Source of the DNA: an uncultured Clostridia bacterium
Lineage (GTDB): Bacteria > Aerophobota > Aerophobia > Aerophobales > AE-B3A
Direction of reading: 5' to 3'
DNA: 64,000 bases
Assembly (NCBI GenBank): GCA_964543295.1
Contig: CAZIXA010000002.1
Location: forward strand, 46,410 to 110,409
Position 1 is the first letter of the stretch; the number at the start of each line of letters is the position of its first letter. Made by a program: the position numbers and the translations under genes. Shown in pieces: positions 33,964 through 61,433 of this stretch. The notes beneath the pieces are model-generated. The model ran no database searches. It saw only the letters and a program-made list of their open reading frames with translations, and was not told the origin of the DNA.

Positions 33964-34047
33964 TTGGGCTAAATGGATAGTTATGCTTTAGGGGTCAAAC
34001 CGCGGAAGTTAAAAAGGGGAAGGATTTGTCCCGCAGAGGAGAAAGCA

Positions 34048-35187
34048 GTGAAGATTCCCTTGCTCGATTTGAAATCTCAGTACAAGACAATCGAAGGAGA
34101 AGTTAATAGAGTGGTAGAAGAGGTTTTGGAAAGTGGACATTATATCCTGGGTCAAAATGTGAAAGCCCTGGAAGAGGAAATTGCTGACTATTGCGAAGTT
34201 AAGTATGCCATAGGAGTTGCCTCGGGCACAGATGCCTTAAGGCTGAGCTTATTGAGCTTGGGAGTGGGTGAAGGAGATGAGGTGATAGTTACTCCTTTTA
34301 CTTTTATTGCCACTGCTGAGGTGATTACTCAGGTAGGTGCCAGACCCACCTTCGTTGATATTGAGGAAAAAAGTTTTAATCTGGATCCCGCCAAGATAGA
34401 AAAGGCCCTAACCCATAGGACCAAAGCCATAATTCCGGTTCATCTTTATGGGCAGGCCGTAGATATGCGCAAGATAATGCACACAGCAAAAGAACACAGT
34501 TTGAAAGTAATCGAAGACGTTGCTCAGGCCTTTGGAACAGAGTATCGTGGATGGGCTGGCCACCCAAAAAAGTTGGGCTCCATGGGAGATGTAGGGTGTC
34601 TTAGTTTCTTTCCGACCAAGAATCTGGGAGGATACGGTGATGGAGGAATGGTTCTGACCAATGACCATGAGGTAGCTAGAAGGATAAAAATGCTCAGAGT
34701 TCATGGTCTAGACTCAAACTGTGGTCATTCTCTACTGGGATATAATAGTCGGTTGGATGAACTGCAAGCGGCAATTCTTAGAGTGAAGCTAAGATGGGTA
34801 GATGAATGGACAAGGATGCGTCGTCAAAATGCATCTCTTTATAATAAGCTGTTCTCTTCTTCTACAGTTCCGGTGAGAATTCCCTTTCAGGCTCCCTATG
34901 CCAGACATAGTTTCTGTGTTTACACTATTCGGATACCCAAAAGAGACAGGTTAAAGGATTACTTGAAGAAAAAAGGGATTGAAACCAAGATTTATTATCC
35001 TCTTCCCCTGCATCTTCAGAAGGTTTATAGGGATCTCGGCTACGATGATCTTGATCTCCCGATAGCGGAAAGAGTCTCTAAAGAAGTTCTCTCCCTACCG
35101 ATATATCCAGAGCTACGCGAAGCGCAGATTGAGTTTGTGGTAAAAGAGATTAAAAATTTTTTTCATAATATTCAATTTGGCCATTGA
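34048..35187 (+). CDS. DegT/DnrJ/EryC1/StrS-family PLP-dependent sugar aminotransferase.
   Basis: The conserved family N-terminus (IPLLDLKSQY) and the PLP-binding lysine region. GAGGAG RBS precedes GTG 34048; the ORF track opens earlier, at 33973. Confidence 0.8.
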   Translation: MKIPLLDLKSQYKTIEGEVNRVVEEVLESGHYILGQNVKALEEEIADYCEVKYAIGVASGTDALRLSLLSLGVGEGDEVIVTPFTFIATAEVITQVGARPTFVDIEEKSFNLDPAKIEKALTHRTKAIIPVHLYGQAVDMRKIMHTAKEHSLKVIEDVAQAFGTEYRGWAGHPKKLGSMGDVGCLSFFPTKNLGGYGDGGMVLTNDHEVARRIKMLRVHGLDSNCGHSLLGYNSRLDELQAAILRVKLRWVDEWTRMRRQNASLYNKLFSSSTVPVRIPFQAPYARHSFCVYTIRIPKRDRLKDYLKKKGIETKIYYPLPLHLQKVYRDLGYDDLDLPIAERVSKEVLSLPIYPELREAQIEFVVKEIKNFFHNIQFGH

Positions 35188-35203
35188 CCTCAGGAGAAAG
35201 GAC

Positions 35204-36151
35204 GTGGCAAGCTACCTGATAACCGGGGGAGCAGGTTTTATCGGATCACATCTGGTGGGAAGGCTATTAAAAGAGGATGAGGAGGTAATAGCTATTGATA
35301 ATTTTGATGATTACTATGATCCCAAAATAAAGAGAAGCAATATCAAAGAATATTTGGGTAACAGGAATTTTGAGTTAAGGGAAGTGGACCTGCGGGATCC
35401 GCAAGAGTTAAGAAGAGTTTTTCAATCCGATAAAATTGCTCAAGTTATCCATTTAGCGGCCAGGGCTGGAGTTAGACCCTCTTTAAGGAATCCTCTTTTG
35501 TATGAGGAAGTAAACATCAAGGGCACCTTGAATTTGTTAGAAATATGCAAGGATTATCCCGTGGAAAATTTTATTTTTGCTTCCTCTTCTTCGGTCTATG
35601 GCACCGCCAGCACTCCCTTTGTGGAAGATGAGAACCTTAACAAACCTACCTCCTTTTATGCAGCTACCAAGCAGGCTGGAGAGCTCATTTGCCATACCTA
35701 TCATCATCTCTACAGTATTCCCACCACTTGCTTGAGACTGTTCACTGTTTATGGTCCCCGACAGAGACCGGAGATGGCCATACATAAATTTACCAGGCTG
35801 ATCGATGAAGGCGGGGAAATAACTATTTTTGGTAATGGGCATTCAAAAAGGGATTATACCTATATTTCGGACATTATTGATGGAATTATGAGAGTACTGC
35901 ACAAAAAATTCGACTATGAGGTATTCAATCTAGGCAGATCACAACCAATCGAGTTGAGAGAACTCGTGGCATTAATTGAGTCGGGTCTGGGAAAGAAAGC
36001 CAGAATAGGACATCTTCCTGACCAGCCAGGCGATCTTCCCATCACTTTTGCTGATCTCACTAAATCGAGGAAGGTATTGGGTTATAATCCCAGGATAGGA
36101 ATAGAAGAGGGTATTAGAAGATTTATCGAATGGCACCGGAATAAACCTTAA
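35204..36151 (+). CDS. NAD-dependent nucleotide-sugar epimerase/dehydratase (SDR; UDP-glucuronate/UDP-glucose 4-epimerase-like).
   Basis: GGAGFIGSHL Rossmann motif and the YxxxK catalytic motif (YAATK). AGGAGA lies upstream of GTG 35204. Confidence 0.75.
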   Translation: MASYLITGGAGFIGSHLVGRLLKEDEEVIAIDNFDDYYDPKIKRSNIKEYLGNRNFELREVDLRDPQELRRVFQSDKIAQVIHLAARAGVRPSLRNPLLYEEVNIKGTLNLLEICKDYPVENFIFASSSSVYGTASTPFVEDENLNKPTSFYAATKQAGELICHTYHHLYSIPTTCLRLFTVYGPRQRPEMAIHKFTRLIDEGGEITIFGNGHSKRDYTYISDIIDGIMRVLHKKFDYEVFNLGRSQPIELRELVALIESGLGKKARIGHLPDQPGDLPITFADLTKSRKVLGYNPRIGIEEGIRRFIEWHRNKP

Positions 36152-36191
36152 TTTTGAGGAAGAACCCCGAGATGTTCTTGAGAGGGTCTCT

Positions 36192-37523
36192 ATGAACATT
36201 TCTATCATTGGTATTGGGCATGTAGGATTAGTTACTGGAGCATGTTTTGCAGAGATAGGCAATCAGGTAATCTGTGTGGATAACGATAAGGAAAAAATTG
36301 CTACTCTGAAAAAAGGAAAAATGCCTATCTACGAGCCTCACCTCGGGGAACTAGTTAAAAAAAACGTTAATGAAGAGCAGCTTTTCTTTTCTACCTCCAT
36401 TGAGGAAGGTGTATCGAAATCCAGCGTGATCTTCATTGCGGTGGGAACACCTCCTAAGGAAAATGGAGAGGCAGATCTATCTTCGGTGGAGAAAGTCTGT
36501 AGTCAGATTGCCCGAAATATGAAGGATTATAAGTTGGTGGTGGAAAAGAGCACTGTTCCAGTACAAACCGGACAGTGGATAAAACGTCTGTTTAACCTGC
36601 ATGATTCTCATCAGGATTTTGACGTTGCCTCAAATCCTGAGTTTTTGCGGGAGGGAAGCGCTATACACGATTTTCTTAATCCGGATAGAATTGTCATCGG
36701 GGTGGAGAATGAAAGAGCAGCCAACATCCTAAAGGAACTTTACTCCCCTATTATCAAACGTAGTTTTGACTCCTCTTTAAAATCTTCTCTGGTCAATCAC
36801 ATTCCCCTGCTTATAACCGACCTTCAAAGTGCAGAGCTAATAAAGCATGCCTCCAACTCTTTTCTGGCTGCCAAGATATCCTTCATAAATGCAGTGGCTG
36901 ATATCTGCGAGAGAGTAGGAGCTGACGTAGAGAAGGTAGCTCAGGGAATGGGATATGATCCTCGCATTGTCCCGGCCTTTCTTAAAGCTGGAGTAGGTTT
37001 TGGAGGTTTCTGTTTTCCCAAGGATCTGCAGGCGTTTATCCAGATAGCGGGAAAGTTTAATTATGATTTTGCTCTTCTCAAAGAGGTAGAGAGAATAAAC
37101 AAAGATAGACCAAGAAGACTGGTGGAGAAAATAGAGGAGGCTTTATGGGTGTTAAAAGATAAAACTATTGGTATTCTTGGTCTTGCCTTTAAGCCAGACA
37201 CCGATGATATGAGATTTGCTCCCTCAATTGAAGTGATAAATCTATTGCAAAAAGAGAAAGCAAAAGTAAAAGTCTATGACCCAGTAGCCATGGACAAGGC
37301 TAAAATGATTTTAAAGGATGTAGAGTACGGTAAAAATCCCTATCTGGTGGCCGAGGGAAGCAATGCCTTAGTCATCGTTACTGAATGGAGTGAATTTCGA
37401 GGTCTTGACCTGGCAAAAATAAAGGGTTTACTGGCCAATCCCATCATCGTAGATGGGAGAAATATCTTCGATCCAGCCAAGATGAAAAAACTGGGTTTTG
37501 TGTATAAGGCAATGGGAAGATGA
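36192..37523 (+). CDS. ugd: UDP-glucose 6-dehydrogenase (nucleotide-sugar dehydrogenase family).
   Basis: N-terminal IIGIGHVGL and the catalytic Cys motif [10 protein letters not shown]. Length is 443 aa. Confidence 0.8.
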
Positions 37524-38449
37524 GAATATTAATAACCGGGGGAGCAGGTTTTCTTGGTTCACATTTATGTGACTATTTGCTGGCTAAAGGTCATGAGGTG
37601 ATAGCTCTGGATAATCTTATTACTGGAAAGGTCGTCAATATCGTTCATCTAGCTGGAAATGAGCATTTCCAATTCATCAAGCAGGATGTGACCGAATATC
37701 TTTATCTTAAGGGGAAAATAGACTATATCCTTCATTTTGCTTCCCCAGCCAGCCCTGTTGATTATCAAAAGTATCCTATTCAAACTTTGAAGGTGGGTTC
37801 TTTAGGAACGCACAAAGCTCTGGGCCTGGCCAGAGAGAAAAAAGCAAAATTTTTGCTTGCTTCGACTTCTGAGGTTTATGGGGATCCTCAGGTAAATCCT
37901 CAAAAAGAGGACTACTGGGGAAATGTTAACTCCCTGGGTCCAAGAGGAATGTACGATGAAGCCAAGAGGTTTGCTGAGGCTTTGACTATGGCCTATCATC
38001 GCTATCATAAGATGCATACAAAGATCGCTCGCATATTTAATTCGTATGGACCCAGGATGAGGAAGGATGACGGAAGGGTTGTTCCTACTTTTATTAATCA
38101 GGCCCTAAAAGGAGAACCTCTCACTGTCTTTGGAGATGGCTCTCAGACAAGGAGTTTTTGTTACGTTTCAGATCTGGTAGAAGGGATATATAAGCTGATG
38201 GTCTCAGAGATAAATGAGCCGGTGAACCTGGGCAGTCCTCATGAGATGAGCATCCTGGATTTTGCTAGATCGGTGCTTGAAATCACTCGCAGCCAGAGCA
38301 AGATAACCTATAAACCTCTGCCAGAGAATGATCCCAGGGTAAGGCGACCGGATATATCCAGAGCAAGGAAATATTTGAAATGGCAGCCAAAAGTCGAGTT
38401 AAGAGAGGGATTGAAGGAAACTTTAGCCTGGTTTGAAAAAGAGACCTAG
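37520..38449 (+). CDS. UDP-glucuronate decarboxylase (UDP-xylose synthase).
   Basis: Highly characteristic UXS sequence ([18 protein letters not shown]…STSEVYGDP…YDEAKR…[11 protein letters not shown]). ATGA overlap with ugd. Confidence 0.85.
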
Positions 38450-38487
38450 CTGGTTTGGATTACGTTTCAAAAACGGGGGAAATTTCG

Positions 38488-38649
38488 ATGCTTGATAAGG
38501 AGTTACTTAAAATTCTGGCCTGTCCTATCTGTAAAAGCGGGGTCAAACTTGAGGGTAATAAAATTATCTGCAGCAAGTGTAAAAAATACTATCCCATCAG
38601 GGATGGTATTCCGGTCATGCTGATAGACGAGGCAAAGGATTTAGAATAA
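38488..38649 (+). CDS. Trm112-like (DUF343/YcaR-family) small zinc-ribbon protein.
   Basis: ILACPICKSG…CSKCKKYYPIRDGIPVML. Confidence 0.6.
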   Translation: MLDKELLKILACPICKSGVKLEGNKIICSKCKKYYPIRDGIPVMLIDEAKDLE

Positions 38650-38716
38650 GAGGTTAATGATCTACTTTAAGAGAGGACGGGAATTTGCGCTGTATCGGGG
38701 CTGAAAGAGGGTCAAG

Positions 38717-39166
38717 GTGGAAGATAGAGCAGTAGAGGAAATAAAACGGCACTTCGATGTGGTAGCGGAAAGCTTAAAAGATGAGATTAAGCTAATAGCA
38801 GAAGGACATGTCCTTCTGAACAAAACAATAGGCGATCTTCGAGAAGATATAGATGAGCTTCGAAAAGAAAATGCACAAGAGCATGCTATCCTCAACAGGA
38901 GAATAGATGATCTCCGTAAAGAGAATGCGGAAGAACATGCTCTCCTCAACAGGAGAATAGATGATCTCCGTAAAGAGAATGCGGAAGAACATGCTATGCT
39001 GAACCAGAGAATAGACGATCTTCGTAGAGAGAATGCAGAGGAACATCGAGAGATCCTATCAGCCATAAAGTTTTCCTACGCTGAGCTGGACCACCGCATC
39101 GTAGCTCTAGAGGACAAATTCGCTGACATTGAGAAACGTATAACTCGTCTAGAAAGTCTTCGTTAG
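38717..39166 (+). CDS. Coiled-coil protein built from four 18-aa (54-bp) tandem repeats (RRIDDLRKENAEEHAxLN).
   Basis: The tandem repeats at 38839-39054 are in frame. No recognisable domain. Confidence 0.55.
   Translation: MEDRAVEEIKRHFDVVAESLKDEIKLIAEGHVLLNKTIGDLREDIDELRKENAQEHAILNRRIDDLRKENAEEHALLNRRIDDLRKENAEEHAMLNQRIDDLRRENAEEHREILSAIKFSYAELDHRIVALEDKFADIEKRITRLESLR
38839..39054 (+). repeat. Four tandem copies of a 54-bp unit inside the coiled-coil gene (two near-identical, two diverged).
   Basis: Units at 38839, 38893, 38947 and 39001. The 38893 and 38947 copies differ at only a few positions. Confidence 0.8.
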
Positions 39167-39244
39167 GATCTTAGAATTGTGGATTGCAGACTTGATTTTT
39201 TGCGTTTTTGACCTAGGACTTAGGACTAACTTGGGGTGAGTAAA

Positions 39245-40309
39245 ATGAAGGCTTTGATCTTAAGTGGAGGAGCAGGTACTCGTCTTCGGCCCATTACCCA
39301 TACCGCAGCCAAACAGCTTATTCCTGTGGCCAACAAACCCATACTTTTTTATGGAATTGAGGCAATTAAAGAAGCAGGTATTAGTGATGTAGGAGTTGTC
39401 ACCGGAGATACTCATGAGGAGATAAAGGAAGCAGTGGGAGGAGGGGAAAAGTGGGGGATTAAGGTTACCTACATTCGACAACCGTCTCCCTTAGGTTTAG
39501 CTCATGCGGTAAAGGAATCGAGAGATTTCTTGCAGGATGAGCCCTTTGTGATGTACCTGGGAGATAACATAGTAAAACAGGGAATAAACTCTTTAGTAAA
39601 AGAATTCCGAGAAAAAAAACCTAATTCCCAGATTCTTCTCGCTCATGTCAATAATCCCCGGCAATTTGGGGTAGCAGAGCTTAAAGGTGATAAAGTGGTG
39701 AGGTTAGTGGAAAAGCCTAAAGAGCCAAAGAGTGACCTGGCTTTAGTAGGCGTGTATATGTTTGATCACCATGTGTTTGAGGCAGTAGACAATATCAAGC
39801 CATCCTGGAGGAATGAGCTAGAAATTACCGATGCTATACAGTACCTAATTGAGCATGGTTATCTAGTTCATTCTCATATCATTAACGGCTGGTGGAAAGA
39901 TACCGGCAAACGTGAGGATTTACTGGAGGCTAACAGGATAATGCTGGACGATGTTAAAACAGAGATAAAAGGAGAAGTGAGTGAAGATTCCAGGATTTAT
40001 GGAAGGGTAAAGATAGATTCTGGAGTCCAGGTAATTAAGAGTGTAATCCGAGGGCCAGCCATAATCGGTAGAGGGTGTAGGTTAATAAAGTCCTACATTG
40101 GTCCTTTTACCTCTGTCTATTATAATACTTTAATTGAAGAATCCGAGATAGAACACAGTATTGTTATGGAGGAATGTAAAATTACTGGCTTGAAATCACG
40201 CATAGAAGACAGCCTCATCGGAAAAAATGTAGTTATCAGTAAGTCAACCGCCAAGCCCCAGGCTTATCGATTTATGCTGGGCGACAGTAGTGAAGTGGGG
40301 ACAATTTAG
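39245..40309 (+). CDS. rmlA: Glucose-1-phosphate thymidylyltransferase, long form with a C-terminal left-handed beta-helix domain.
   Basis: MKALILSGGAGTRLRPITHTAAKQL, and a length of 355 aa typical of the long RmlA clade. Confidence 0.8.
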   Translation: MKALILSGGAGTRLRPITHTAAKQLIPVANKPILFYGIEAIKEAGISDVGVVTGDTHEEIKEAVGGGEKWGIKVTYIRQPSPLGLAHAVKESRDFLQDEPFVMYLGDNIVKQGINSLVKEFREKKPNSQILLAHVNNPRQFGVAELKGDKVVRLVEKPKEPKSDLALVGVYMFDHHVFEAVDNIKPSWRNELEITDAIQYLIEHGYLVHSHIINGWWKDTGKREDLLEANRIMLDDVKTEIKGEVSEDSRIYGRVKIDSGVQVIKSVIRGPAIIGRGCRLIKSYIGPFTSVYYNTLIEESEIEHSIVMEECKITGLKSRIEDSLIGKNVVISKSTAKPQAYRFMLGDSSEVGTI

Positions 40310-40326
40310 ACAAGAGGAGCAATAGG

Positions 40327-41448
40327 TTGAGACTGCTTGTTACCGGTGGAGCTGGCTTTATCGGGAGTAATTTTGTAAGACACACACTCAAAAAATATCC
40401 TGACTATGAAATTGTCGTTCTTGACAAACTCACCTATGCCGGGGATCTTGATAATTTAAAGGAGTTTCTGAATCCAGACAATTTATATTTAAGAAAAGAT
40501 TATAAAACCTCATATGCTCATCATCCGATTGAAAGTTTGTGGTCTGGAGTGAAGGCTAGATTCATTGAAAGAAAGCTTTTAGCCGATCGGCTTCTCTTCA
40601 TTCAGGGAGATATCTGCGATTCTCAATTAGTAGAACGAATAATGCCTGATGCGGATGTGGTAGTGAATTTTGCCGCCCAAAGCCACGTGGACCGTTCCAT
40701 ACTGGAAGCGGGTAGCTTCGTTACCACTGATGTCTATGGTACCTATGTTCTCCTCGAGGCCGCCAGAAGATACAAAAAAAATAGATTCATTCAAATTGGC
40801 ACCGATGAGGCATACGGAAGCATTGAGAAAGGCTCATTCAAAGAGACAGATCCTTTAAATCCGTCCAGTCCCTATGCAGCAAGTAAGGCGGCTGCTGATC
40901 TATTAGTAAAATCCTATTATGTGACCTATGATCTCCCAGTGATAATTACCCGTAGTAGCAATAATTTTGGGCCCTATCAGCATCCGGAAAAACTAATTCC
41001 TTTATTTATTACTAATGCTATCGATAATATGCATCTTCCCTTATATGGAGATGGGATGAATGTCAGGGATTGGCTATATGTTATTGATAATTGTTTTGCT
41101 ATTGACCTGGTGCTTCATAAAGGCAGGCGGGGTGAGATATATAATATTGGCGCAGATAATGAACAAGCCAATATTGAGATAACGAGGATGATTTTGAAAC
41201 TGCTGGGCAAGCCCGAAGACTTGATCAAGTTAGTTCAAGATAGGCCAGGCCATGATCGGCGGTATGCGCTTAACTCTACCAAAATAAAAAAGCTGGGCTG
41301 GAAAACGAGCTATTACTTCGAAGAAGCCATGAAAAGGACTGTTGACTGGTATATGAACAATAAGGACTGGTGGCGGAAAATAAAAGAAAAAGACAGGGAC
41401 TATCGAGAATACTATAGAAAGCAATATATTGAGCGGGAAACCATATGA
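40327..41448 (+). CDS. rmlB: dTDP-glucose 4,6-dehydratase carrying an insertion of about 35 aa after the first Rossmann strand region.
   Basis: LLVTGGAGFIGSNFVRH…LDKLTYAG…HVDRSI…YAASKAA… It begins with TTG after GAGGAG. Confidence 0.85.
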   Translation: MRLLVTGGAGFIGSNFVRHTLKKYPDYEIVVLDKLTYAGDLDNLKEFLNPDNLYLRKDYKTSYAHHPIESLWSGVKARFIERKLLADRLLFIQGDICDSQLVERIMPDADVVVNFAAQSHVDRSILEAGSFVTTDVYGTYVLLEAARRYKKNRFIQIGTDEAYGSIEKGSFKETDPLNPSSPYAASKAAADLLVKSYYVTYDLPVIITRSSNNFGPYQHPEKLIPLFITNAIDNMHLPLYGDGMNVRDWLYVIDNCFAIDLVLHKGRRGEIYNIGADNEQANIEITRMILKLLGKPEDLIKLVQDRPGHDRRYALNSTKIKKLGWKTSYYFEEAMKRTVDWYMNNKDWWRKIKEKDRDYREYYRKQYIERETI

Positions 41449-41552
41449 AAATTCTTATTACCGGGATCAGCGGGATGTTGGTGGTAGACTTTTGGTGTAT
41501 CTTTCGAAGTAGAGCCCTAAAAGAATATCTACAGGAAAGGAAAGGCTTATGA
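41445..41552 (+). pseudogene. Remnant of the dTDP-4-dehydrorhamnose reductase gene (rmlD): a 35-codon ORF with an RmlD-like N-terminus (MKILITGxxGxLV). It is translationally coupled (ATGA) to both neighbours.
   Basis: MKILITGISGMLVVDFWCIFRSRALKEYLQERKGL*. ATGA overlaps rmlB at 41445-41448 and the cupin gene at 41549-41552. Confidence 0.5.
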
Positions 41553-42004
41553 TTGAAGGGGTTAGGTTAAAAGAGCTTAAGTCCATTCCCGATGAAAGGG
41601 GCCGGGTGATGGAAATATTAAGAGCTGATGATGAGGGGTTTGAAAGATTTGGCCAGGTATATATGACCACTGCTTACCCGGGAGTAGTAAAGGCCTGGCA
41701 TTACCATAAACTCCAGACCGATAATATGGCTGTAATAAAGGGAATGATGAAGGTTGTTCTCTACGATGGACGGAAGGATTCGCCGACTAATGGCGAGGTA
41801 AACGAGTTTTTCTTGGGGGAACACAGTTTTAAACTCATCCAAATACCCAAAATGGTCTATCACGGCTTTAAGTGCATAGGTCAGGAAGAAGCTATTGTGA
41901 TAAACATCCCCACCCAGCCTTATGATTATAAACATCCTGATGAGTACCGGCTGGACCCTTATGAAAATAAGATACCCTATGATTGGAGGTTAAAAGAGGG
42001 GTAG
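41549..42004 (+). CDS. RmlC-like cupin, either a short dTDP-4-dehydrorhamnose 3,5-epimerase-like or an FdtA-like 3,4-ketoisomerase.
   Basis: Cupin motif KAWHYHK (compare FdtA RGFHAHK and RmlC RGLHYQ). Length is 151 aa. Confidence 0.65.
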   Translation: MIEGVRLKELKSIPDERGRVMEILRADDEGFERFGQVYMTTAYPGVVKAWHYHKLQTDNMAVIKGMMKVVLYDGRKDSPTNGEVNEFFLGEHSFKLIQIPKMVYHGFKCIGQEEAIVINIPTQPYDYKHPDEYRLDPYENKIPYDWRLKEG

Positions 42005-42119
42005 GCAATCAAAGGCGAGATATAGACAACGGCCTTAAGAAAGCTATTTCAAAACGTGTGACTTATCAACTTACAAGTAAGAGAAAGAGTCAGCGGAATC
42101 TGAGGAAAGGAGATCGGTA

Positions 42120-43196
42120 ATGGTGCAGGAAAATACCGAGTTAATCGATTATCTGGGCGTAATCTGGAAGTGGAAGCTGCTCATAATCCTAATAACAGTA
42201 GTTTGTGCAATTACTTCCGGGGTGATAAGTTTTGTTTTACCCAAAATATATCAATCTTCAGGCATCCTTGAAGTAGGAAGAGTTCCCAGATATAGGGGAA
42301 CAGGCCAGGAGCAGATTGAGCCAATTGAAGATATTGAGTCAGTTAGCGAGGTTCTCGAAAGTGATGAAATGCTCAGCAAGACTAAGGAAAAATTTAATCT
42401 ACATACTACCTTAGGGGGAATAAGGGCCAGGCTGGATGTGGAACCAATTCTTGGCAAGTATATAGGTTCAAGATTGCAGGCCCGCCTCATTAAAATAACC
42501 TTTGAAGATCGGGACCCCCAGTTAACAGTGGATATTCTGAATACTTTGTCAGACTCCCTCATAAAGCAGCATCTCCAGGAGTATCAGACCTCAATAGAAA
42601 ACCTTGACCAGGAGATAGCTAATTCTCAGGAGAAGATAAAAATAATTAACCTAGCGATAGGAACTATTAATAGGCAGATAGCCATAATAGATGACAAGAT
42701 CAAACTCCAGAATGAATATCGGAAAGTGGTTGATCAGCAAATAAAAGTGGCCGAAAAAGCCATTGCTGAAACGAGACAGGATCTTTCCAAACTAGGCTTG
42801 AAAAATATTAGTCCTCTGGAAGTGCTTTTTTTGCGATCTACTTTACGAGATCAGGAGGAAAGGATAGCAAGTTTTCATCGGGAACTAAAAGACGTTGAGC
42901 TTTCCATTGAAGAAAACAAGAGATCTATTGAAGAACAAAAAGCACTTATTGCAGAAAATCAGAAGGATGTTCAGGACTTGCGAGATAAGATAGTATATCT
43001 AGAACATATGAGGGCGATATCGGAGAACACAAAAGTGAGAGATAAGCCAATAAAGCCTGATGCGCCTATCAGACCCAAGAAAAAATTAAATGCAATTATC
43101 GGAGGGGTGGTAGGTTTTGTAGCGGCAATAATCCTGGCCTTCTTTTTTGAATACTTACAAACGGTTGGGATGAGGAAAAGAGAAAAAGTGAGATGA
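42120..43196 (+). CDS. Polysaccharide co-polymerase (Wzz/chain-length determinant family).
   Basis: An N-terminal transmembrane helix, a long coiled-coil periplasmic region, and a C-terminal transmembrane helix (IIGGVVGFVAAIILAFFFEYL). Confidence 0.75.
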   Translation: MVQENTELIDYLGVIWKWKLLIILITVVCAITSGVISFVLPKIYQSSGILEVGRVPRYRGTGQEQIEPIEDIESVSEVLESDEMLSKTKEKFNLHTTLGGIRARLDVEPILGKYIGSRLQARLIKITFEDRDPQLTVDILNTLSDSLIKQHLQEYQTSIENLDQEIANSQEKIKIINLAIGTINRQIAIIDDKIKLQNEYRKVVDQQIKVAEKAIAETRQDLSKLGLKNISPLEVLFLRSTLRDQEERIASFHRELKDVELSIEENKRSIEEQKALIAENQKDVQDLRDKIVYLEHMRAISENTKVRDKPIKPDAPIRPKKKLNAIIGGVVGFVAAIILAFFFEYLQTVGMRKREKVR

Positions 43197-43236
43197 AGCA
43201 GCGGGAAATAAGGAAAGATCACGATGGAAATCAGCT

Positions 43237-45789
43237 ATGAGGAAAAAGCTGCAGTGCGCAAAGGCTTTGATGATGGTTAGCGTCTGGTTCATTGTTTGGC
43301 CAGGAGGAACCCTGTTGGCCAAGGATTTAAGTGGGCTAACAAAGGAAAAGAAGTATCATCCTAAAATGGAGAGCGTCCTGGGGATGCTAACGGATAAATA
43401 CTCCCAGGGTCGGGCAGTGGCTCGGGAATTTGCCTATCAAAGAAAAATTCCCTTCCAGGATGATCAAGTTACCGTTATCTTAGTTCCCCCAGCAGGGAGG
43501 GATGCCTCAGCCATCGATGAAGGAAGTTTGAGTTTATACGGAGCCAACGTAGAGGCGATTTCCCGGCATCTGATCAGAGCGAGGATTCCAATATCAAAGC
43601 TGGTTGAGATTGCCGAGAATGTAGCTGGTGTCTCTTACATTCGCTTGTCTCTTACTCCTCTGCCGGGTTCGGTGACCAGCGAAGGAGTAGCTCTCACCAA
43701 TGCGGTCGACTACCACAGCGCAGGATACGAAGGTCAGAACACTAAGGTAGCGGTCATAGATTTAGGATTTAATGAATTGGAGATGGTGCAAAATGCTGGA
43801 GAACTGCCTTCTAATATTATAACCAAAGATTTTACGGGAACCGGTCTAACCACAGGTTCGAATCATGGAACCAAAGTTGCGCAGATTGTGTATGATATGG
43901 CTCCCCAAGCCCAGCTTTCTTTCATCAAGATAGCTGATGAAGTCGACCTGGAAAACGCTAAGGATTACTGCATTACGGAAGGAGAGGATATAATCAACCA
44001 CTGCTGGGGTTGGCCTAATACCAACTTTACTGATGGAACCGGCCTGATCTGTGACATTGCTAATGATGCCCAATCTCATAATATTCTCTGGGTCAACGCA
44101 GCGGGAAATGCAGCAAGAGAGCATTATCAGGATTTTTTCACTGATGTTGATAGCGATAGTTGGCATGAATTTGCTCCTGGAGACGAAACCAATCCTATTC
44201 AGGTTCTTGGAGACGACATCACCATCTTCCTAACCTGGGATGCCTGGCCCACTACCAAGCAAGACTACGATCTTTATTTATATGACTCTGATTTTAACCT
44301 GGTTGCCTCCTCCACCAATGCCCAAACCGGGACTCAGCCACCTACTGAGAAAATCGTCTATACACCTTCGCACTCCGGTACCTATAACATAATGATTCAT
44401 AAGTTCAGTGCTACCGGGAACGAGGAGCTGAAACTCTTTACTTTTAACTGTGACTTGCAATATTATACTCCTGCTCACAGTCTTTGGCCTCCGGCAGATG
44501 CCGCTGGTGTCATGAGCGCAGGTGCTATCGATCAGGCCAATTGGGAGACGGGACCTCAGGAAAGCTACAGTTCTCAGGGTCCTACCAATGACGGAAGAAT
44601 TAAGCCCGACATAAGCGGCCCCGATGGAGTGAGCCGCTATGCTGGAGGGACTGTTGGCAGAGGTTATGGTACATCCTATGCTGCTCCCCATGTGGCCGGA
44701 GCCGCCTCCCTGCTTCTTTCCAGATATCCTGCCTATACCGCTGATCAACTTAAATTGACTCTGGAGAATTGGGCTGTTGATATGGGGACACCGGGTAAAG
44801 ATAATATCTATGGGTATGGTCGGTTAATGCTGGAGCTTATTCCCGGTGCACCGCCCAGTCTTTCCTGGACTGGCGAGCCAAACTATACCTCTGATGGACT
44901 TGATCCAGAAACAGGGACATCCAGTACTAATTTTATCTATCGGGTGAAATATAGTGATGAGGATAATGATCCTCCTGCTTCAGGTTTTCCCAAGGTTCAC
45001 ATCCTCAAGGGAGGCTCGGAAATCTCGGGCAGTCCCTTTACTATGGATGAGGTCGATTCCGGGGATACCACTTACAGCGACGGTAAACTTTACACTTACA
45101 CCAAAACTGAACTGATTCTGGGAACTGATTATGGCTACTGTTTTGAAGCTGAGGATGTTCATGGGAGCCAAGCCACCGGAGATCCTATTAATGTGGTTGA
45201 TGGTCCGGATATTAGTGAAGAAATACCTGTTTTGGAAGTTGATCCTGCTTCCTTGGCTTTCGGTGAAGTGAAAGTGCCTCAAACTAAGACCATGACCTTT
45301 CGTGCCTATAACACTGGTACAGGAAAGTTGAGCGGAACGATCAGCGATGATAGAGACTGGATAACGGTAGATCCAACGAGCCTTACAGAGAATGATAATA
45401 CTATCTCAGTTACTGTGGACACAGGTATCATGGATGCAGAGCGATGGAAGGAGTACAGCGGGACTGTAACGGTCATCTCCAATGGGGGGACAAAAACCGT
45501 AGATGTAAGTGTTACTCCTACTTGCGTCAAAGTCTATCCTAATCCCTTTAATCCCGGGTGTTCTCGGCTTACCTTCTGGGGTTCCGGGGTTCCTCATGCT
45601 ACGATTAAAATCTACACTGTGAGCGGAGAACTAGTCAAAAGTTTATATGAGATTAGCGGAGAATATAAAATTTACTGGGATGGTAAAAATGAAGAAGGAA
45701 AACCTGTAGTTGCTGGAATTTACCTTTTTGTAGCCAATAATCCGGAAGGAAGGGATACTGGAAAATTCATGATAATCAGAAAGCCCTGA
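43237..45789 (+). CDS. Secreted subtilisin-like serine peptidase (S8) with a C-terminal Por/T9SS-type sorting domain (TIGR04183-like).
   Basis: Catalytic triad regions D (VAVIDLGF), H (HGTKVAQIV) and S (GTSYAAPHVAGAAS). A signal peptide is present. The C-terminal domain reads YPNPFNP…TIKIYTVSGELV…WDGKNEEGKPVVAGIYLF. Confidence 0.8.
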   Translation: MRKKLQCAKALMMVSVWFIVWPGGTLLAKDLSGLTKEKKYHPKMESVLGMLTDKYSQGRAVAREFAYQRKIPFQDDQVTVILVPPAGRDASAIDEGSLSLYGANVEAISRHLIRARIPISKLVEIAENVAGVSYIRLSLTPLPGSVTSEGVALTNAVDYHSAGYEGQNTKVAVIDLGFNELEMVQNAGELPSNIITKDFTGTGLTTGSNHGTKVAQIVYDMAPQAQLSFIKIADEVDLENAKDYCITEGEDIINHCWGWPNTNFTDGTGLICDIANDAQSHNILWVNAAGNAAREHYQDFFTDVDSDSWHEFAPGDETNPIQVLGDDITIFLTWDAWPTTKQDYDLYLYDSDFNLVASSTNAQTGTQPPTEKIVYTPSHSGTYNIMIHKFSATGNEELKLFTFNCDLQYYTPAHSLWPPADAAGVMSAGAIDQANWETGPQESYSSQGPTNDGRIKPDISGPDGVSRYAGGTVGRGYGTSYAAPHVAGAASLLLSRYPAYTADQLKLTLENWAVDMGTPGKDNIYGYGRLMLELIPGAPPSLSWTGEPNYTSDGLDPETGTSSTNFIYRVKYSDEDNDPPASGFPKVHILKGGSEISGSPFTMDEVDSGDTTYSDGKLYTYTKTELILGTDYGYCFEAEDVHGSQATGDPINVVDGPDISEEIPVLEVDPASLAFGEVKVPQTKTMTFRAYNTGTGKLSGTISDDRDWITVDPTSLTENDNTISVTVDTGIMDAERWKEYSGTVTVISNGGTKTVDVSVTPTCVKVYPNPFNPGCSRLTFWGSGVPHATIKIYTVSGELVKSLYEISGEYKIYWDGKNEEGKPVVAGIYLFVANNPEGRDTGKFMIIRKP

Positions 45790-45822: not shown

Positions 45823-46947
45823 ATGGAAAAAAAGATATTGGTAACGGGAGGAGCGGGATTTATTGGCTCCTACCTCGTCGATAAATTAATTGAGCTGGGC
45901 TATGAAGTCATGGTTTTCGATAACTTGGAGCCTCAGGTACATGGAGACGGCCAGAAAATACCGGAATATTTAAATAAAGAATGTGAATTTATTAAGGGAG
46001 ATGTCCGAAATAGGGACGAGTTTAAAAAAGCTTTGAAGGGTAGAGAGATCGTTTTTCATCAGGCTGCTGCAGTGGGAGTGGGGCAGTCTATGTATGAAAT
46101 TAATAAATATACCGAGGTTAACATTTTGGGCACGTCGAACTTACTTGATATCCTGGCCAACGAAAACCATCAGGTGGAAAAGCTAATTATCGCTTCTTCA
46201 ATGTCGGTATATGGTGAGGGAAAATATAGCTGTGTTGATTGCGGAGTAGTTTATCCCAAATTGAGGTCGTTATCACAACTCAAAGAAGGAGAGTGGGAAA
46301 TGAGGTGTCCTTTCTGTAACCAGGAAGTACAAAGTTTACCTACGGATGAAGAGAAGCCACTCTATCCCACTTCTATTTATTCCATTTCCAAGAGGGACCA
46401 AGAGGAGATGTGCTTAACCATCGGAAGAGCCTACTGTATTCCCACCGTGGCCTTGAGATACTTCAATGTTTATGGCCCCAGACAAGCACTGTCCAATCCT
46501 TATACCGGGGTAGCAGCCATATTTTCTTCCCGTATTTTAAATAACCACCCACCCTGTATCTTTGAAGACGGTTTACAGTCCCGGGATTTTACCCATGTCA
46601 GTGACATCGTTCAGGCTAACCTTCTGGCTATGGAGAGCAATGATGCAGATTACGAGGTTTTTAATGTGGGTACAGGTCGGCCTTTAACAGTTTTGAGTAT
46701 CGCCGAGGCTCTTATCAAAAGCCTTAACTCATCAGTGGATATGAATATAGTGAGAAAATATAGAGAAGGGGATATCAGGCACTGCTATGCTGATATTTCT
46801 AAAATTCGGGACCAACTTGGTTTCCAGCCCAAAGTGAAATTCGAAAAGGGTATTTCTGAGTTCGTTGGTTGGGTACGAGGTGAGAAGGCTAGGGATCAAT
46901 TTGAAAAATCGAGAAGAGAATTGGAGGAAAAAGGATTAGCAGTCTAA
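45823..46947 (+). CDS. NAD-dependent epimerase/dehydratase (SDR) carrying a CxxC…CxxC zinc-ribbon insertion.
   Basis: GGAGFIGSYL, the YxxxK motif (YSISK), and an inserted CVDCG…CPFCNQ segment. Confidence 0.7.
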   Translation: MEKKILVTGGAGFIGSYLVDKLIELGYEVMVFDNLEPQVHGDGQKIPEYLNKECEFIKGDVRNRDEFKKALKGREIVFHQAAAVGVGQSMYEINKYTEVNILGTSNLLDILANENHQVEKLIIASSMSVYGEGKYSCVDCGVVYPKLRSLSQLKEGEWEMRCPFCNQEVQSLPTDEEKPLYPTSIYSISKRDQEEMCLTIGRAYCIPTVALRYFNVYGPRQALSNPYTGVAAIFSSRILNNHPPCIFEDGLQSRDFTHVSDIVQANLLAMESNDADYEVFNVGTGRPLTVLSIAEALIKSLNSSVDMNIVRKYREGDIRHCYADISKIRDQLGFQPKVKFEKGISEFVGWVRGEKARDQFEKSRRELEEKGLAV

Positions 46948-51268: not shown

Positions 51269-52381
51269 TTGGTGGTCAAAAGATTGAGTAGAGAGCTTAT
51301 CTGGAAATATCTACCTCTTGCCATAACTGGTTTTTATGATTACCAGATAAAGGTTCATTTCAGCAGGATTCTACCTCCCAGAACGCTCATATTTCCCGTA
51401 ACCTATCGATGTAATTCACGATGTCTCATGTGCAATATATGGAAAAAGGATCGAAAACCAGAGATGAGTTTAAAAGAGCTGGAAGTGGCCTTCTCAGATA
51501 ATTTATTTAGAAAAATCCAAAATGTTAACATCACCGGCGGAGAACCAACCTTACGGAAAGACCTGAGTCAGATTGTCCGATTGCTCGTAAGGAAGATGCC
51601 AGAATTAAGAAAGATTACCCTTACCACAAATGCCCTTAATGTAAGTAGTGTAGTTACTTCTTCTGCAAAAATATCAGAAATTTGCCGTGAGAAAGACATT
51701 GATTTCCTGGTGGGAATCTCCCTGGATGGCATTGGTGAGGTTCATGATGAGATAAGAAATGTTCCGAGAGCTTTTGAGAGGACTAGCCAAACTATTTTGA
51801 AAGTTCAGGAACTTCAACAACTTCATCATAATAGGATGAGGTTAAACGTTAACTGTACCATAACCAAAAAAAATCTACCCGATCTGGAAAATCTTATTGA
51901 TTGGTGCAGTCGACATAATGTCTATGTCAACTTCATAATTGCTGAGTTTTCCGAAAACTACTATTCGAACGAAGGTGTAGAGAAGCAATTGCGGATCGAA
52001 GACGAGGACATGGATTATTTTCTGAGTTTTCTCCAAAAACTAGCAGCGGAGAAATCGCTTTTCAACTTGTCAGCCTATTTTTACAGTGACATGCTAGAAG
52101 TAATTAAGAACAATAAAGCAAGAACGGCTCCCTGTATCTTCTGGTTTGACGGATTTGTCTTTGACATCTACGGGGATCTTTATTACTGCATTCTCTGGGA
52201 TAAGATTGGAAACTGCCGTGACAAAAGTTGCAGTAGTATCTATTATGATCCTAAGAATGTTCTCTACCGGAAAGATCTTTTAAGAACAAAGTGCGCCAAC
52301 TGCACCAGCAGTTGTTTTCTAGAAATAGCGACCGGGAAAGAGCTAATCAAATACTTGAAGTTTCTATTATTTTACCATTAG
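51269..52381 (+). CDS. Radical SAM protein with a C-terminal Cys-rich (SPASM/twitch-like) region.
   Basis: CxxxCxxC (YRCNSRCLMC) near the N-terminus and C-terminal cysteines (CANCTSSC). Confidence 0.7.
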   Translation: MVVKRLSRELIWKYLPLAITGFYDYQIKVHFSRILPPRTLIFPVTYRCNSRCLMCNIWKKDRKPEMSLKELEVAFSDNLFRKIQNVNITGGEPTLRKDLSQIVRLLVRKMPELRKITLTTNALNVSSVVTSSAKISEICREKDIDFLVGISLDGIGEVHDEIRNVPRAFERTSQTILKVQELQQLHHNRMRLNVNCTITKKNLPDLENLIDWCSRHNVYVNFIIAEFSENYYSNEGVEKQLRIEDEDMDYFLSFLQKLAAEKSLFNLSAYFYSDMLEVIKNNKARTAPCIFWFDGFVFDIYGDLYYCILWDKIGNCRDKSCSSIYYDPKNVLYRKDLLRTKCANCTSSCFLEIATGKELIKYLKFLLFYH

Positions 52382-54199: not shown

Positions 54200-55630
54200 A
54201 TGTCCAATTCCAAAGTACTTTTAATTAGTCCACAAATAGATTATGCAAAAATGTTTGGAAAAGCAAGCGCAACTACCCCCTCGATGATTCCCTTAAACTT
54301 ACTATATCTGTCCGCGTATTTAGAGGGTAAAAACATTCCCGTAAAAGTACTGGATGGGCAAGTAAATGACTTGAGTGAGGAGAGTTTAATAAGGCATATT
54401 AAACAATTCAACCCAAACATTGTGGGCATAAGTTGCCATACACCATTAGTATATCTTGCTCATAGAATTGCCAAGACGGTAAAAAGCGCTTCCCGTCAAA
54501 TAACAGTCATTATGGGGGGTCCTCATCCGAGTGTACTTCCTGACGAGACAATAGCTGATGAGAATGTTGATATAGTAGTTAGAGGTGAGGGTGAAATCAC
54601 ACTTTTTGAGTTGGTAAAAGCGATTGAAAGCGGCACTAATCTAAATTTAATTCTGGGGATAACGTATCAGGATAACGGAAATATTGTCGCTACTGCAGAT
54701 AGGCCTTTAAACACGGATCTTGATTCGCTGCCCCTTCCTTCAAGACATCTCGTCCCTATCAGGGAATATCACCCTCAAGCAGATATTTACTACCGATTCC
54801 CCTGGACTATTATGCTTACCTCCAGAGGATGTCCATACAAATGTATATTTTGCGCTTCCAGGCGAATCTCAGGACATAAATATCGAGTGAGAAGTCCAGA
54901 AAAGGTTGTTGAAGAAATCGACGTCCTGGTAAACCAATATGGCATTAGAAATATCGGCATAGCCGATGATAACTTTGTTGTCGACAGAAAGAGGACAGAG
55001 CGAATATGTGATATACTTATTAAGGAGGGCTACCACCGAAGAGTGGACTGGGTGTGTGCACTCAGAGCAGATGGGGTTGATAAGCCTCTCCTGAAAAAGA
55101 TGAGAGCCGCAGGCTGCAAATGTATCTGTGTCGGTATTGAAACAGGGTCTCAGCGGTTGATGAATATTCTTAAAAAGCATCTTAAGTTAGAAAAAGTGGA
55201 GGAAGGGGTCAGAATGATGAGGGAAGCAGAAATCAAAGTCCGGGGCACTTTTTTGCTGGGAATTCCAACAGAGACAGAGGAGGAAACGCTACAGACCGTA
55301 CATTTTGCTAAGAAATTAAGTCTCGATTTTGCTAAGTTTAATATTATTACTCCCTATCCAGGCACAGAATTGTATGAAATGGCTAAGGACAGAGACTTGG
55401 TCGCGGACGATACGTGGTCCAGGTTAATTCCAGGCATCGGATTCAGTGAGGCAGAGCCGGTCTTTGTGCCTAAGGGAAGAAATCCCAAAGAGTTAAAAGC
55501 CAAGCAACAAAGAGCTACCAGGACATTCTATTTTCGGCCGCGGCCAATTTGGAATTTAGCTAATAACATACGATCCTTTGATGATTTTAAGCGGTATTTT
55601 TATGCGGCAAAATTATTGCTGAAATGGTAG
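54200..55630 (+). CDS. B12-binding-domain radical SAM protein (class B, COG1032-type), paralog 1.
   Basis: An N-terminal cobalamin-binding Rossmann-like domain and CxxxCxxC (SRGCPYKCIFC). Confidence 0.8.
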   Translation: MSNSKVLLISPQIDYAKMFGKASATTPSMIPLNLLYLSAYLEGKNIPVKVLDGQVNDLSEESLIRHIKQFNPNIVGISCHTPLVYLAHRIAKTVKSASRQITVIMGGPHPSVLPDETIADENVDIVVRGEGEITLFELVKAIESGTNLNLILGITYQDNGNIVATADRPLNTDLDSLPLPSRHLVPIREYHPQADIYYRFPWTIMLTSRGCPYKCIFCASRRISGHKYRVRSPEKVVEEIDVLVNQYGIRNIGIADDNFVVDRKRTERICDILIKEGYHRRVDWVCALRADGVDKPLLKKMRAAGCKCICVGIETGSQRLMNILKKHLKLEKVEEGVRMMREAEIKVRGTFLLGIPTETEEETLQTVHFAKKLSLDFAKFNIITPYPGTELYEMAKDRDLVADDTWSRLIPGIGFSEAEPVFVPKGRNPKELKAKQQRATRTFYFRPRPIWNLANNIRSFDDFKRYFYAAKLLLKW

Positions 55631-60227: not shown

Positions 60228-61433
60228 GTGAAGGTACTGGTAACAATCTTTGAAGAGTTGGTTCCCGTAACTGGTGGAGGGACCCCAAGAATATCAAATA
60301 TAATAAAGGCTCTGGTCAGGAAAGAACACGAAGTTTATGTCGCCTCGTCTATTGGGGTGAGAAAAGAGAATGCCATTGAGCAGATGGGGTGTGTTGGTCT
60401 GGGGCCTCTTTTGAAGGTGAGTCGCTTAAGTTCAAAAAAAATGGTAAAGTATCTGTATGCTCATCCCCTGAATATATGGCGAGTGGTAAAATATGCCAGA
60501 AAAATAAAACCCGATCTGATTATCTCTCATAACACTATCGCTGGGTTTGCTGCGCTTTTGGCAAAACGGTTCCAAAAAGACTGCCTTGTGGTTTTGGATC
60601 TGACCGATCTACTATTTGAGTATCTGGGAGACTATTACCCTGGGGGATGGATGAGGTTAGTTCAACTTGAGGGAAAGCGTCTGGAAAGAAATACCATTAG
60701 AGAATCGGACAAAATAGTTACCGTTAGCAATTCCATGAGGGATATTCTTTTGACCTATGGCGCAAAGTTAGAAAATATTGAGGTGATTTGTGATGGAGTG
60801 GACACGAAGATTTTTAAACGGACATATGAGAGTGAACTGAGGAATAAATTTGGCAAGGATGCCGAAGATATTGTTATATTTCAAGGAGTAATCGATCCTC
60901 AGGACAATCCCCAGATTATTTTAGATGCAGCCAAGGAGGTGTTGAAGAAACACCGCCAGACAATGTTTTGGATAATAGGGGATGGAACAGCCCTGCCCAA
61001 GCTCAAACAAAAAGTTGTTGAGGAGAATTTAGCCGAGTATTTCTATTTTTCAGGATGGGTCAAGCAAGAAGAAGTAGCTCACTACATCTCAGCTAGCGAC
61101 ATTGGACTTGTCATTCTTCCGGACAGCTTGTCGGCCCGGGGCAGGGTAACCCTTAAGGAATTCGAGTATTGGGCTTGCGGTGTTCCCGTTGTTGCTCCTC
61201 AACTGTCAGCGCTTGAAGAGGTGGTTGAGGACGGAAAGACAGGTTTTTTCTGGCAACCAGGTAACTTTAAGGATCTTGCCCAGAAGATAATGCTTCTCAT
61301 TGAAAGCAAAGATATGAGAAAGAAAATGGGACAAAAGGGGGTGGAGGTGGTCAAAGAGAAATTCGAATGGCAGAAATTGACCAATCATTATGTAAAGGTT
61401 TGCGAGAATTTCGTGAAGAGGATACAGGAATGA
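60228..61433 (+). CDS. Glycosyltransferase family 4 (GT-B).
   Basis: The GT4 C-terminal EX7E-like region (EFEYWACGVPVVAPQLSALEEVVEDGKTGFFW). Confidence 0.75.
   Translation: MKVLVTIFEELVPVTGGGTPRISNIIKALVRKEHEVYVASSIGVRKENAIEQMGCVGLGPLLKVSRLSSKKMVKYLYAHPLNIWRVVKYARKIKPDLIISHNTIAGFAALLAKRFQKDCLVVLDLTDLLFEYLGDYYPGGWMRLVQLEGKRLERNTIRESDKIVTVSNSMRDILLTYGAKLENIEVICDGVDTKIFKRTYESELRNKFGKDAEDIVIFQGVIDPQDNPQIILDAAKEVLKKHRQTMFWIIGDGTALPKLKQKVVEENLAEYFYFSGWVKQEEVAHYISASDIGLVILPDSLSARGRVTLKEFEYWACGVPVVAPQLSALEEVVEDGKTGFFWQPGNFKDLAQKIMLLIESKDMRKKMGQKGVEVVKEKFEWQKLTNHYVKVCENFVKRIQE

Follow-up and report, generated by a model that had tools for sequence, protein, structure and literature searches.

A 35-codon open reading frame between rmlB and a cupin gene as the probable relic of rmlD in a surface-glycan operon of an uncultured lineage

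The stretch of 64,000 nucleotides (nt) of contig CAZIXA010000002.1 analysed here, referred to as the window, contains an rml gene group for deoxythymidine diphosphate (dTDP) sugars, in which long-form rmlA, rmlB, an open reading frame of only 35 codons (mini-ORF) and a short cupin gene follow one another on the same strand (Table 1). The stop codon TGA of rmlB (41446-41448) shares bases with the start codon of the mini-ORF within the tetranucleotide ATGA at 41445-41448, and the TGA of the mini-ORF shares bases with the ATG of the cupin gene in the same way, within the ATGA at 41549-41552. The initial annotation, made from the letters alone, had described the mini-ORF with both overlaps, and they are present in the sequence; its naming of the three neighbouring genes is confirmed by the profile scores. 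As described below, the mini-ORF is very probably a relic of rmlD that was left by an in-frame internal deletion of 780 nt in an rmlA-rmlB-rmlD-cupin operon. The peptide alone, too short a query, had no match in Pfam, NCBIfam (E ≤ 0.01) or the PDB. Promoter and terminator scans of 38400-43300 returned no more sites than shuffled sequences did, and nothing inside the remnant pointed to a new transcription signal.

Table 1. Features of the rml locus of the window, with the evidence for each
Feature	Position	Strand	Evidence or remark
rmlA, long-form glucose-1-phosphate thymidylyltransferase	39236-40309	+	TIGR01208 (rmlA_long) 508 bits, cut-off 320
rmlB, dTDP-glucose 4,6-dehydratase	40327-41448	+	TIGR01181 453 bits, cut-off 365
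Mini-ORF, probable rmlD remnant, 35 codons, ATG start	41445-41552	+	translation MKILITGISGMLVVDFWCIFRSRALKEYLQERKGL, then stop
5' block, corresponding to rmlD nt 1-44, codons 1-15, with the start of the GxxGxxG Rossmann motif	41445-41488	+	40/44 identical to L008
Junction segment, 24 nt, CTTTTGGTGTATCTTTCGAAGTAG	41489-41512	+	encloses both deletion breakpoints
3' block, corresponding to rmlD nt 849-888, last 12 codons and stop	41513-41552	+	36/40 identical to L008
Cupin, 151 residues, divergent short homologue of RmlC-superfamily dTDP-4-keto-6-deoxyhexose epimerases	41549-42004	+	PF00908 54 bits, cut-off 27

The identity of the missing gene is given by relatives whose cupins are 83-90% identical to that of the window, as they carry a PF04321 gene of 283-304 residues between rmlB and the cupin gene. 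An intact rmlD is found in L003/L004, L005-L007, L095 and L008, and also in L097-L114, which came from the metagenome scan. The order of the genes in these relatives is syntenic, running from a UXS-like short-chain dehydrogenase/reductase (SDR) through Trm112, rmlA, rmlB, the PF04321 gene, the cupin gene and Wzz to an S8 peptidase and a 374-residue SDR, and the position of rmlA is constant across all of them. The intact orthologue, of 295 residues, is a true RmlD, scoring 326-334 bits against the TIGR01214 equivalog model (cut-off 224). In L095 and L008, rmlD starts with a TTG that shares bases with the stop of rmlB, and its own stop shares bases with the ATG of the cupin gene. Since these two intact operons show both overlaps, the ATGA/TTGA overlaps are ancestral, so that the deletion kept them and did not make them.

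We aligned the mini-ORF with the 888-nt intact rmlD genes of L008 and L095. At the 5' end, a blastn block of 43 nt is 93% identical to the rmlD of L008 (E 5e-14, in a small search), and at the 3' end a block of 95 nt (41513-41607), which reaches into the cupin gene, is 89% identical to L008 (E 2e-28). The part of the latter block that belongs to rmlD (41513-41552) matches that of L095 at 34 of 40 nt. The mini-ORF is therefore orthologous to rmlD by position as well as by sequence, with 90-91% nucleotide identity at both ends, and the net loss amounts to 780 of 888 nt, or 260 of 295 codons, with the frame kept. Both breakpoints, for which the initial annotation had proposed a nucleotide alignment, fall within 41489-41512. 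The junction of the deletion allele is marked by the sequence GTAGACTTTTGGTGTATCTTTCGAAGTAGAGCC. The 24 nt in between show no similarity above shuffled controls to the inner 804 nt of rmlD, as 109 and 129 of 500 shuffles matched the observed score. Small collinear matches of this segment to internal rmlD were accordingly rejected as chance, because the shuffled controls do equally well.

The same division is apparent in the translation. The N-terminal 15 residues of the mini-ORF, MKILITGISGMLVVD, match LKVLITGISGMLGVD of the RmlD orthologues, the junction encodes the eight residues FWCIFRSR, and the last 12 residues, ALKEYLQERKGL, match ALKEYLEERKGL of the RmlD of L095. The initial annotation had noted an RmlD-like sequence over the first 10 residues only, had regarded rmlD as absent from the operon and had proposed that an internal deletion left the mini-ORF in frame; the comparison with intact relatives bears out all of this, and the match is more extensive than was noted. 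The remnant, however, has 35 residues, whereas a full-length SDR that reaches the family score has ~285-300. Its glycine-rich loop is reduced to TGISGML, with the final Gly replaced by Val, and the catalytic YxxxK motif (YGRSK in the intact RmlD of L095 and L008) falls inside the deleted stretch, so that neither this motif nor a complete NAD(P)H-binding Rossmann fold is left. With the substrate-binding domain and the greater part of the Rossmann fold lost as well, the relic has no capacity to act as a reductase.

From these alignments, a simple course of events can be proposed. The ancestor, probably a relative of Candidatus Aerophobetes that is known only from metagenomes, would have had a translationally coupled rmlA-rmlB-rmlD-cupin operon, from which an internal deletion removed 780 of the 888 nt of rmlD. 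Codons 1-15 and, with the stop, the last 12 codons would have been left, separated by 24 nt of junction that is scrambled or of no assignable origin. Ribosomes finishing rmlB could in principle re-initiate, read the 35 codons and stop on the cupin start. The number of nucleotides lost is divisible by three and the two ends of the gene survive, so the relic still begins on the rmlB stop and ends on the cupin start. The initial annotation held that the deletion had preserved translational coupling; the two overlaps are indeed retained, whereas working coupling in the remnant operon, or selection for it, is an inference only.

The deletion is not confined to the window. Eight contigs from independent JGI and Logan assemblies of different samples share its junction and fall into three haplotypes. 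The first haplotype (L001, Logan SRR14802572) is identical to the window, the second (L088-L091, from three JGI samples and one Logan run) has a 95% identical cupin, and the third (L092-L094, from three JGI samples) a 93% identical one. Recurrence of the junction in several independent assemblies excludes an assembly artefact. Across the three haplotypes, the 108-nt remnant has six variable sites and neither indels nor stops; two of the sites are non-synonymous (L12W and K26T), four are synonymous, and none lies at codon position 1. Deleted and intact alleles coexist in one sediment metagenome, Ga0307432, which yielded the deleted contig L089 and the intact contig L099.

A further relative, L002, has lost rmlD wholly, without a remnant, and its rmlB runs on to a stop 8 nt into the cupin gene (…AAAGTTTATGATTGA). 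Its rmlA is 90.7% identical to that of the window at the nucleotide level, compared with 94-96% for several intact lineages, and its rmlB 83.6%, compared with 84-92%. Several intact lineages are thus closer to the window than L002 is, and an independent second loss of rmlD is the most parsimonious explanation; a derivation of the L002 allele from the remnant allele is conceivable but less likely.

The rml operon of the relatives is a hotspot of small rearrangements in other respects as well. In L120, rmlB is split by ~1 kb (721-2928); in L117, ~1 kb is inserted between rmlD and the cupin gene (1093-2069); and in L093, a DUF4258/DUF2283 pair is inserted between rmlA and rmlB (1413-1892). The rmlB gene of the window itself holds a stretch (40456-40655, residues ~44-110) that diverges by 30-43% from L088, with flanks that differ by 1-9%; this hyper-divergent stretch is a recombination or mosaic patch in an otherwise conserved gene. 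RmlB also carries an insertion of ~37 residues relative to TIGR01181, and the model aligns with it in two stretches.

To describe the constraint on the truncated operon, we compared the three deletion haplotypes with each other. The ratios of non-synonymous to synonymous substitution rates (dN/dS) are 0.20-0.23 for rmlB and 0.11-0.16 for the cupin gene, and this purifying selection on both genes suggests that the truncated operon is still used. The proportion of variable sites is 5.6% in the remnant, 11.3% in the spacer between the cupin gene and wzz, and 9.2%, 10.5% and 19.3% at the third codon positions of rmlB, rmlA and the cupin gene, respectively. The remnant is significantly less diverse than the third positions of the cupin gene (Fisher p 0.0015), while its six substitutions do not distinguish it significantly from the spacer or from the third positions of rmlB and rmlA (p 0.15-0.37). 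Purifying selection on the remnant was therefore dropped as a conclusion, as only one contrast is significant and the region is mosaic.

With rmlD gone, RmlA, RmlB and an RmlC-type cupin are all that the operon encodes. By profile, the cupin scores 54 bits with PF00908, 52 bits with PF14667 and 23.5 bits with PF05523 (FdtA; gathering score 23.0), and 39 bits with the RmlC equivalog TIGR01221, for which the cut-off is 155.75. Its first sequence match in the PDB is 3EJK, an uncharacterised 'dTDP sugar isomerase' (E 1e-27), followed by RmlC chains at 3e-10 to 1e-5/1e-4, of which an archaeal RmlC is the best (E 3e-10), and by CapF (2e-5); the QdtA and FdtA chains appear at E 0.35 and 0.47. The AlphaFold2 (AF2) model (predicted structure; predicted local distance difference test, pLDDT, 84) adopts an RmlC-type jelly-roll fold. 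The best 50 Foldseek matches of the model in the PDB are all RmlC, ChmJ, NovW, WbcA, EvaD, StrM, DdahB/MlghB or CapF, with TMq values of 0.75-0.92 (0.60 for CapF), and FdtA and QdtA are absent from these 50.

The cupin belongs to a very large and strongly conserved family of 151-residue proteins, with 7992 matches at E ≤ 1e-5, of which the best 120 are 72-100% identical and several are named Candidatus Aerophobetes. In a scan of GTDB genomes that left out the window's own genome, and in which the best cupin match is 87% identical, the cupin gene has rmlB no more than 3 kb away at 60 of 80 species loci, which span many phyla, and rmlD at 45 of 80. If only the 53 loci with 3 kb or more of sequence on each side are counted, the numbers are 43 and 36, respectively. 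The invariant residues of the family are H51-x-H53, D58, K68, H105, N119 and Y125, and H51-Y-H53 is invariant in 33 family members. An HxH motif is characteristic of FdtA and QdtA. In RmlC, catalysis involves the His63/Asp170 dyad, Lys73 and Tyr133 (Salmonella enterica numbering; PMC7949155). In pairwise HMMER alignments, H51 of the cupin aligns with the catalytic His63, Lys73 falls in a gap, and Tyr133 corresponds to the invariant N119, with Y125 nearby. The family thus appears to be without the canonical Lys73 and Tyr133 positions of RmlC. Taken together, the cupin of the rml operon is best described as a homologue of RmlC-superfamily epimerases with a putative activity.

As the operon encodes no RmlD, dTDP-L-rhamnose synthesis needs a 4-ketoreductase encoded elsewhere, or else the 4-keto intermediate is used otherwise. 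We searched the 64-kb window by tblastn with two orthologous RmlD proteins and found no rmlD, the only match being one of 24% identity, at the level of SDRs in general, to the UXS-like gene at 37520. The other SDRs of the window (35177, 37520, 45823 and rmlB) score 23-60 bits with the RmlD models, compared with the cut-off of 224. An intact rmlD just beyond the window, which the initial annotation had named as a finding that would speak against it, is not present in the 5.4 kb upstream; downstream, the sequence reaches only ~0.4 kb further, and the glycan cluster, with glycosyltransferases, radical SAM enzymes and methyltransferases, extends to the right-hand end of the window. Among JGI metagenomes, the rmlD orthologues of at least 60% identity all lie in the rmlB-rmlD-cupin context, and none at a second locus.

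Several readings of the mini-ORF itself were weighed against the deletion. There is virtually no chance that it is a fortuitous reading frame or an assembly artefact whose RmlD-like start is merely a generic Rossmann N-terminus. Several SDR genes of the window do begin with an MKILITG-like sequence, but the N- and C-terminal blocks both match the positional orthologue (89-93% nucleotide identity) and the junction recurs on eight independently assembled contigs; the two-ended match and the repeated junction led us to reject both the artefact and the chance frame. The initial annotation had set a pair of findings against its own proposal, namely a cupin that groups with RmlC and a mini-ORF that does not resemble rmlD; the cupin evidence does favour RmlC, while the nucleotide similarity of the mini-ORF to rmlD is clear. 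It is also conceivable, though unlikely, that selection has kept the 35 codons, either as a translational relay between rmlB and the cupin gene or for the small hydrophobic peptide that they would encode (MKILITGISGMLVVDFWCIF plus a basic tail). The frame is open and of the same length in all three haplotypes, free of indels, with four of six variable sites synonymous, none at codon position 1 and a density of variable sites (5.6%) below that of the spacer and of the third positions, and the L002 allele, too, retains upstream translation that overlaps the cupin start. However, there are just six substitutions to judge from, and the contrasts with the spacer and with the third positions of rmlB and rmlA are not significant. 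The synonymous changes are all transitions and the non-synonymous ones both transversions, for which mutation bias suffices; a young allele spread by recombination would explain the low diversity equally well; an in-frame outcome has a probability of about one third by chance; and the relic is dispensable, as L002 shows. The open frame and the kept overlaps fit a relay and a young neutral relic equally. The deletion relic is therefore our preferred reading, and the points that weigh against it, or against what we draw from it, are as follows. The breakpoints are placed only to the 24-nt segment; a multi-step origin, by several deletions or by compensating frameshifts, is conceivable; translation of the mini-ORF is putative; and organism-wide loss of RmlD is likely from a search that covered the 64-kb window, 5.4 kb upstream and ~0.4 kb downstream. 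The region is mosaic, with haplotypes that differ at 0-43 positions per 100 nt, so the deletion allele may have spread by recombination, and for the same reason the dN/dS values may be partly older than the deletion.

As to the product of the truncated operon, which we can infer only, the alternatives differ in how the missing step is met. It is possible, at somewhat less than even chances, that dTDP-L-rhamnose synthesis is completed by another rmlD, or by an analogous 4-ketoreductase, encoded elsewhere in the genome, and that the operon copy was redundant before the deletion. The intact rmlA, rmlB and cupin genes under purifying selection in the carriers of the deletion agree with such redundancy, as do the two distinct loss alleles, which suggest that the loss is tolerated; against it stand the absence of rmlD from the 64-kb window and the 5.4 kb upstream, and the fact that every close metagenomic orthologue is in the operon context and none at a second locus. 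The initial annotation had favoured a dTDP-amino-dideoxyhexose, such as Fuc3NAc, Qui3NAc or viosamine, made by way of an FdtA/QdtA-like cupin, the DegT aminotransferase (33973) and the LbH protein (52394), and had considered the cupin as much FdtA-like as RmlC-like. We now consider this very improbable. The cupin does carry the invariant H51-x-H53 as FdtA and QdtA do, barely attains the PF05523 gathering score (23.5 against 23.0 bits) and leaves RmlC Lys73 and Tyr133 unmatched in pairwise alignments (residue roles from PMC7949155), and the window does contain DegT and LbH genes. The profiles, PDB matches, Foldseek matches and linkage to rmlB and rmlD nevertheless favour RmlC, whose models and structures fit the cupin far better than those of FdtA/QdtA, so that an FdtA/QdtA identity was rejected as the best reading (PF05523 23.5 against PF00908 54 bits; E 0.35-0.47 against 3e-10). 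Where FdtA or QdtA would have a 3-aminotransferase and an N-acyltransferase as operon partners in place of RmlD, the 83-90% identical cupin genes of the nearest relatives are coupled to a genuine rmlD, and the linkage of the family to rmlB and rmlD holds across phyla. The DegT gene, 6 kb upstream, adjoins a UDP-glucose dehydrogenase (UDP, uridine diphosphate) and a UXS/ArnA-like decarboxylase SDR, which indicates a UDP-sugar route. The LbH protein is WcaF-like (94 bits), of the O-acetyltransferase type and not an N-acetyltransferase of the VioB/QdtC type; it scores 57 bits with the NeuD/PglB/VioB model (cut-off 161), and the UXS-like SDR and Trm112 neighbours also stand beside intact rmlD in relatives. 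The proposed product is therefore not upheld. A third possibility, which we regard as improbable, is an adaptive glycan switch instead of decay, in which the relic has been selected as a bridge or a new peptide and the operon, having lost RmlD twice, feeds another product; if so, dTDP-4-keto-L-rhamnose, for instance, would be taken by a non-orthologous reductase or transaminase.

Other genes of the glycan cluster deserve a brief description. The block at 33973-38449 (+), consisting of the DegT aminotransferase, a GalE-like SDR, a UDP-glucose 6-dehydrogenase and the UXS/ArnA-like SDR, looks like a UDP-glucuronate-derived pentose or amino-pentose route that is separate from the dTDP route. Between Trm112 and rmlA lies an open reading frame of 149 residues (38717-39166, +) that is coiled-coil-like and has no NCBIfam match. 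It contains a 54-nt tandem repeat of 3.7 copies at 38849-39046 (RRIDDLRKENAEEHA units; Tandem Repeats Finder score 277). In L003 and L088, rmlA directly follows Trm112, without this frame. An 850-residue S8 peptidase with BACON_2 and FlgD_ig-like domains (43237-45789, +), unusual in a glycan cluster, stands between Wzz and the 374-residue SDR in many syntenic relatives. That SDR (45823-46947, +) is GalE-like, with an insertion of ~35 residues containing CxxC...CxxC that splits the Epimerase domain and looks like a zinc ribbon; it is kept in all relatives, with or without rmlD. Several radical SAM enzymes (51269-52381, 54200-55630, 61430-62872 and 62926-64000), three of them with B12-binding domains, and two methyltransferases (55667 and 58071) suggest that the cluster makes C-methylated or otherwise modified sugars. 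For the third of these enzymes, the gene start at 61430 is on record, and the mechanical reading-frame start at 61367 is wrong.

The observations matter mainly for annotation. With an rml operon that lacks its reductase, automatic calls of a dTDP-L-rhamnose pathway would be wrong or incomplete, and the 35-codon frame ought to be annotated as what remains of rmlD, not as a gene. The locus also offers a natural example of an in-frame deletion that spares both coupling junctions of an operon, and the coexisting alleles, together with the second loss, could be used in studies of glycan-locus turnover and of coupling by termination and re-initiation. The family of 151-residue RmlC-like cupins, which has thousands of members in many phyla and an active site unlike that of canonical RmlC, is biochemically uncharacterised.

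Among known systems, the closest counterpart of the cupin is RmlC (PF00908/TIGR01221), together with 3EJK, the sole solved structure of the cupin family, for which we found no published activity. The cupin shares with them the fold, the DERG, SPT.G and HGF motifs, the correspondence of H51 to His63 and the linkage to rmlB and rmlD; it differs from RmlC in its length (151 residues and not ~180-200), in the HxH motif and in that equivalents of Lys73 and Tyr133 are not evident. A second resemblance is to CapF/WbjC, an SDR reductase with a C-terminal cupin (PF14667, with which our cupin scores 52 bits), whose domain order is mirrored by the ancestral order of reductase gene, then cupin gene, where stop and start overlap. 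Here, in contrast, the genes are separate and the context is that of dTDP- and not UDP-sugars, and the structural match covers the cupin domain alone. The remnant, for its part, compares with RmlD (TIGR01214/PF04321) of the rmlABCD (rfbABCD) operons in its position, its start and stop overlaps and its first 15 and last 12 codons, but is without 260 of the 295 codons, the YxxxK motif and the substrate-binding domain; it is a pseudogene relic and no active member of that family. The case is well documented yet ordinary: an uncultured lineage has lost a gene from a surface-glycan operon. Gene remnants and pseudogenes formed by deletion are a general phenomenon in bacterial surface-polysaccharide loci. 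As in those loci, a biosynthetic gene has been deleted, some close relatives keep it intact while others have lost it, and the flanking sequence is a recombining mosaic. Unlike the general case, the deletion in the window is in frame, with an open mini-ORF and both ancestral overlaps, so that polarity or coupling may be unaffected.

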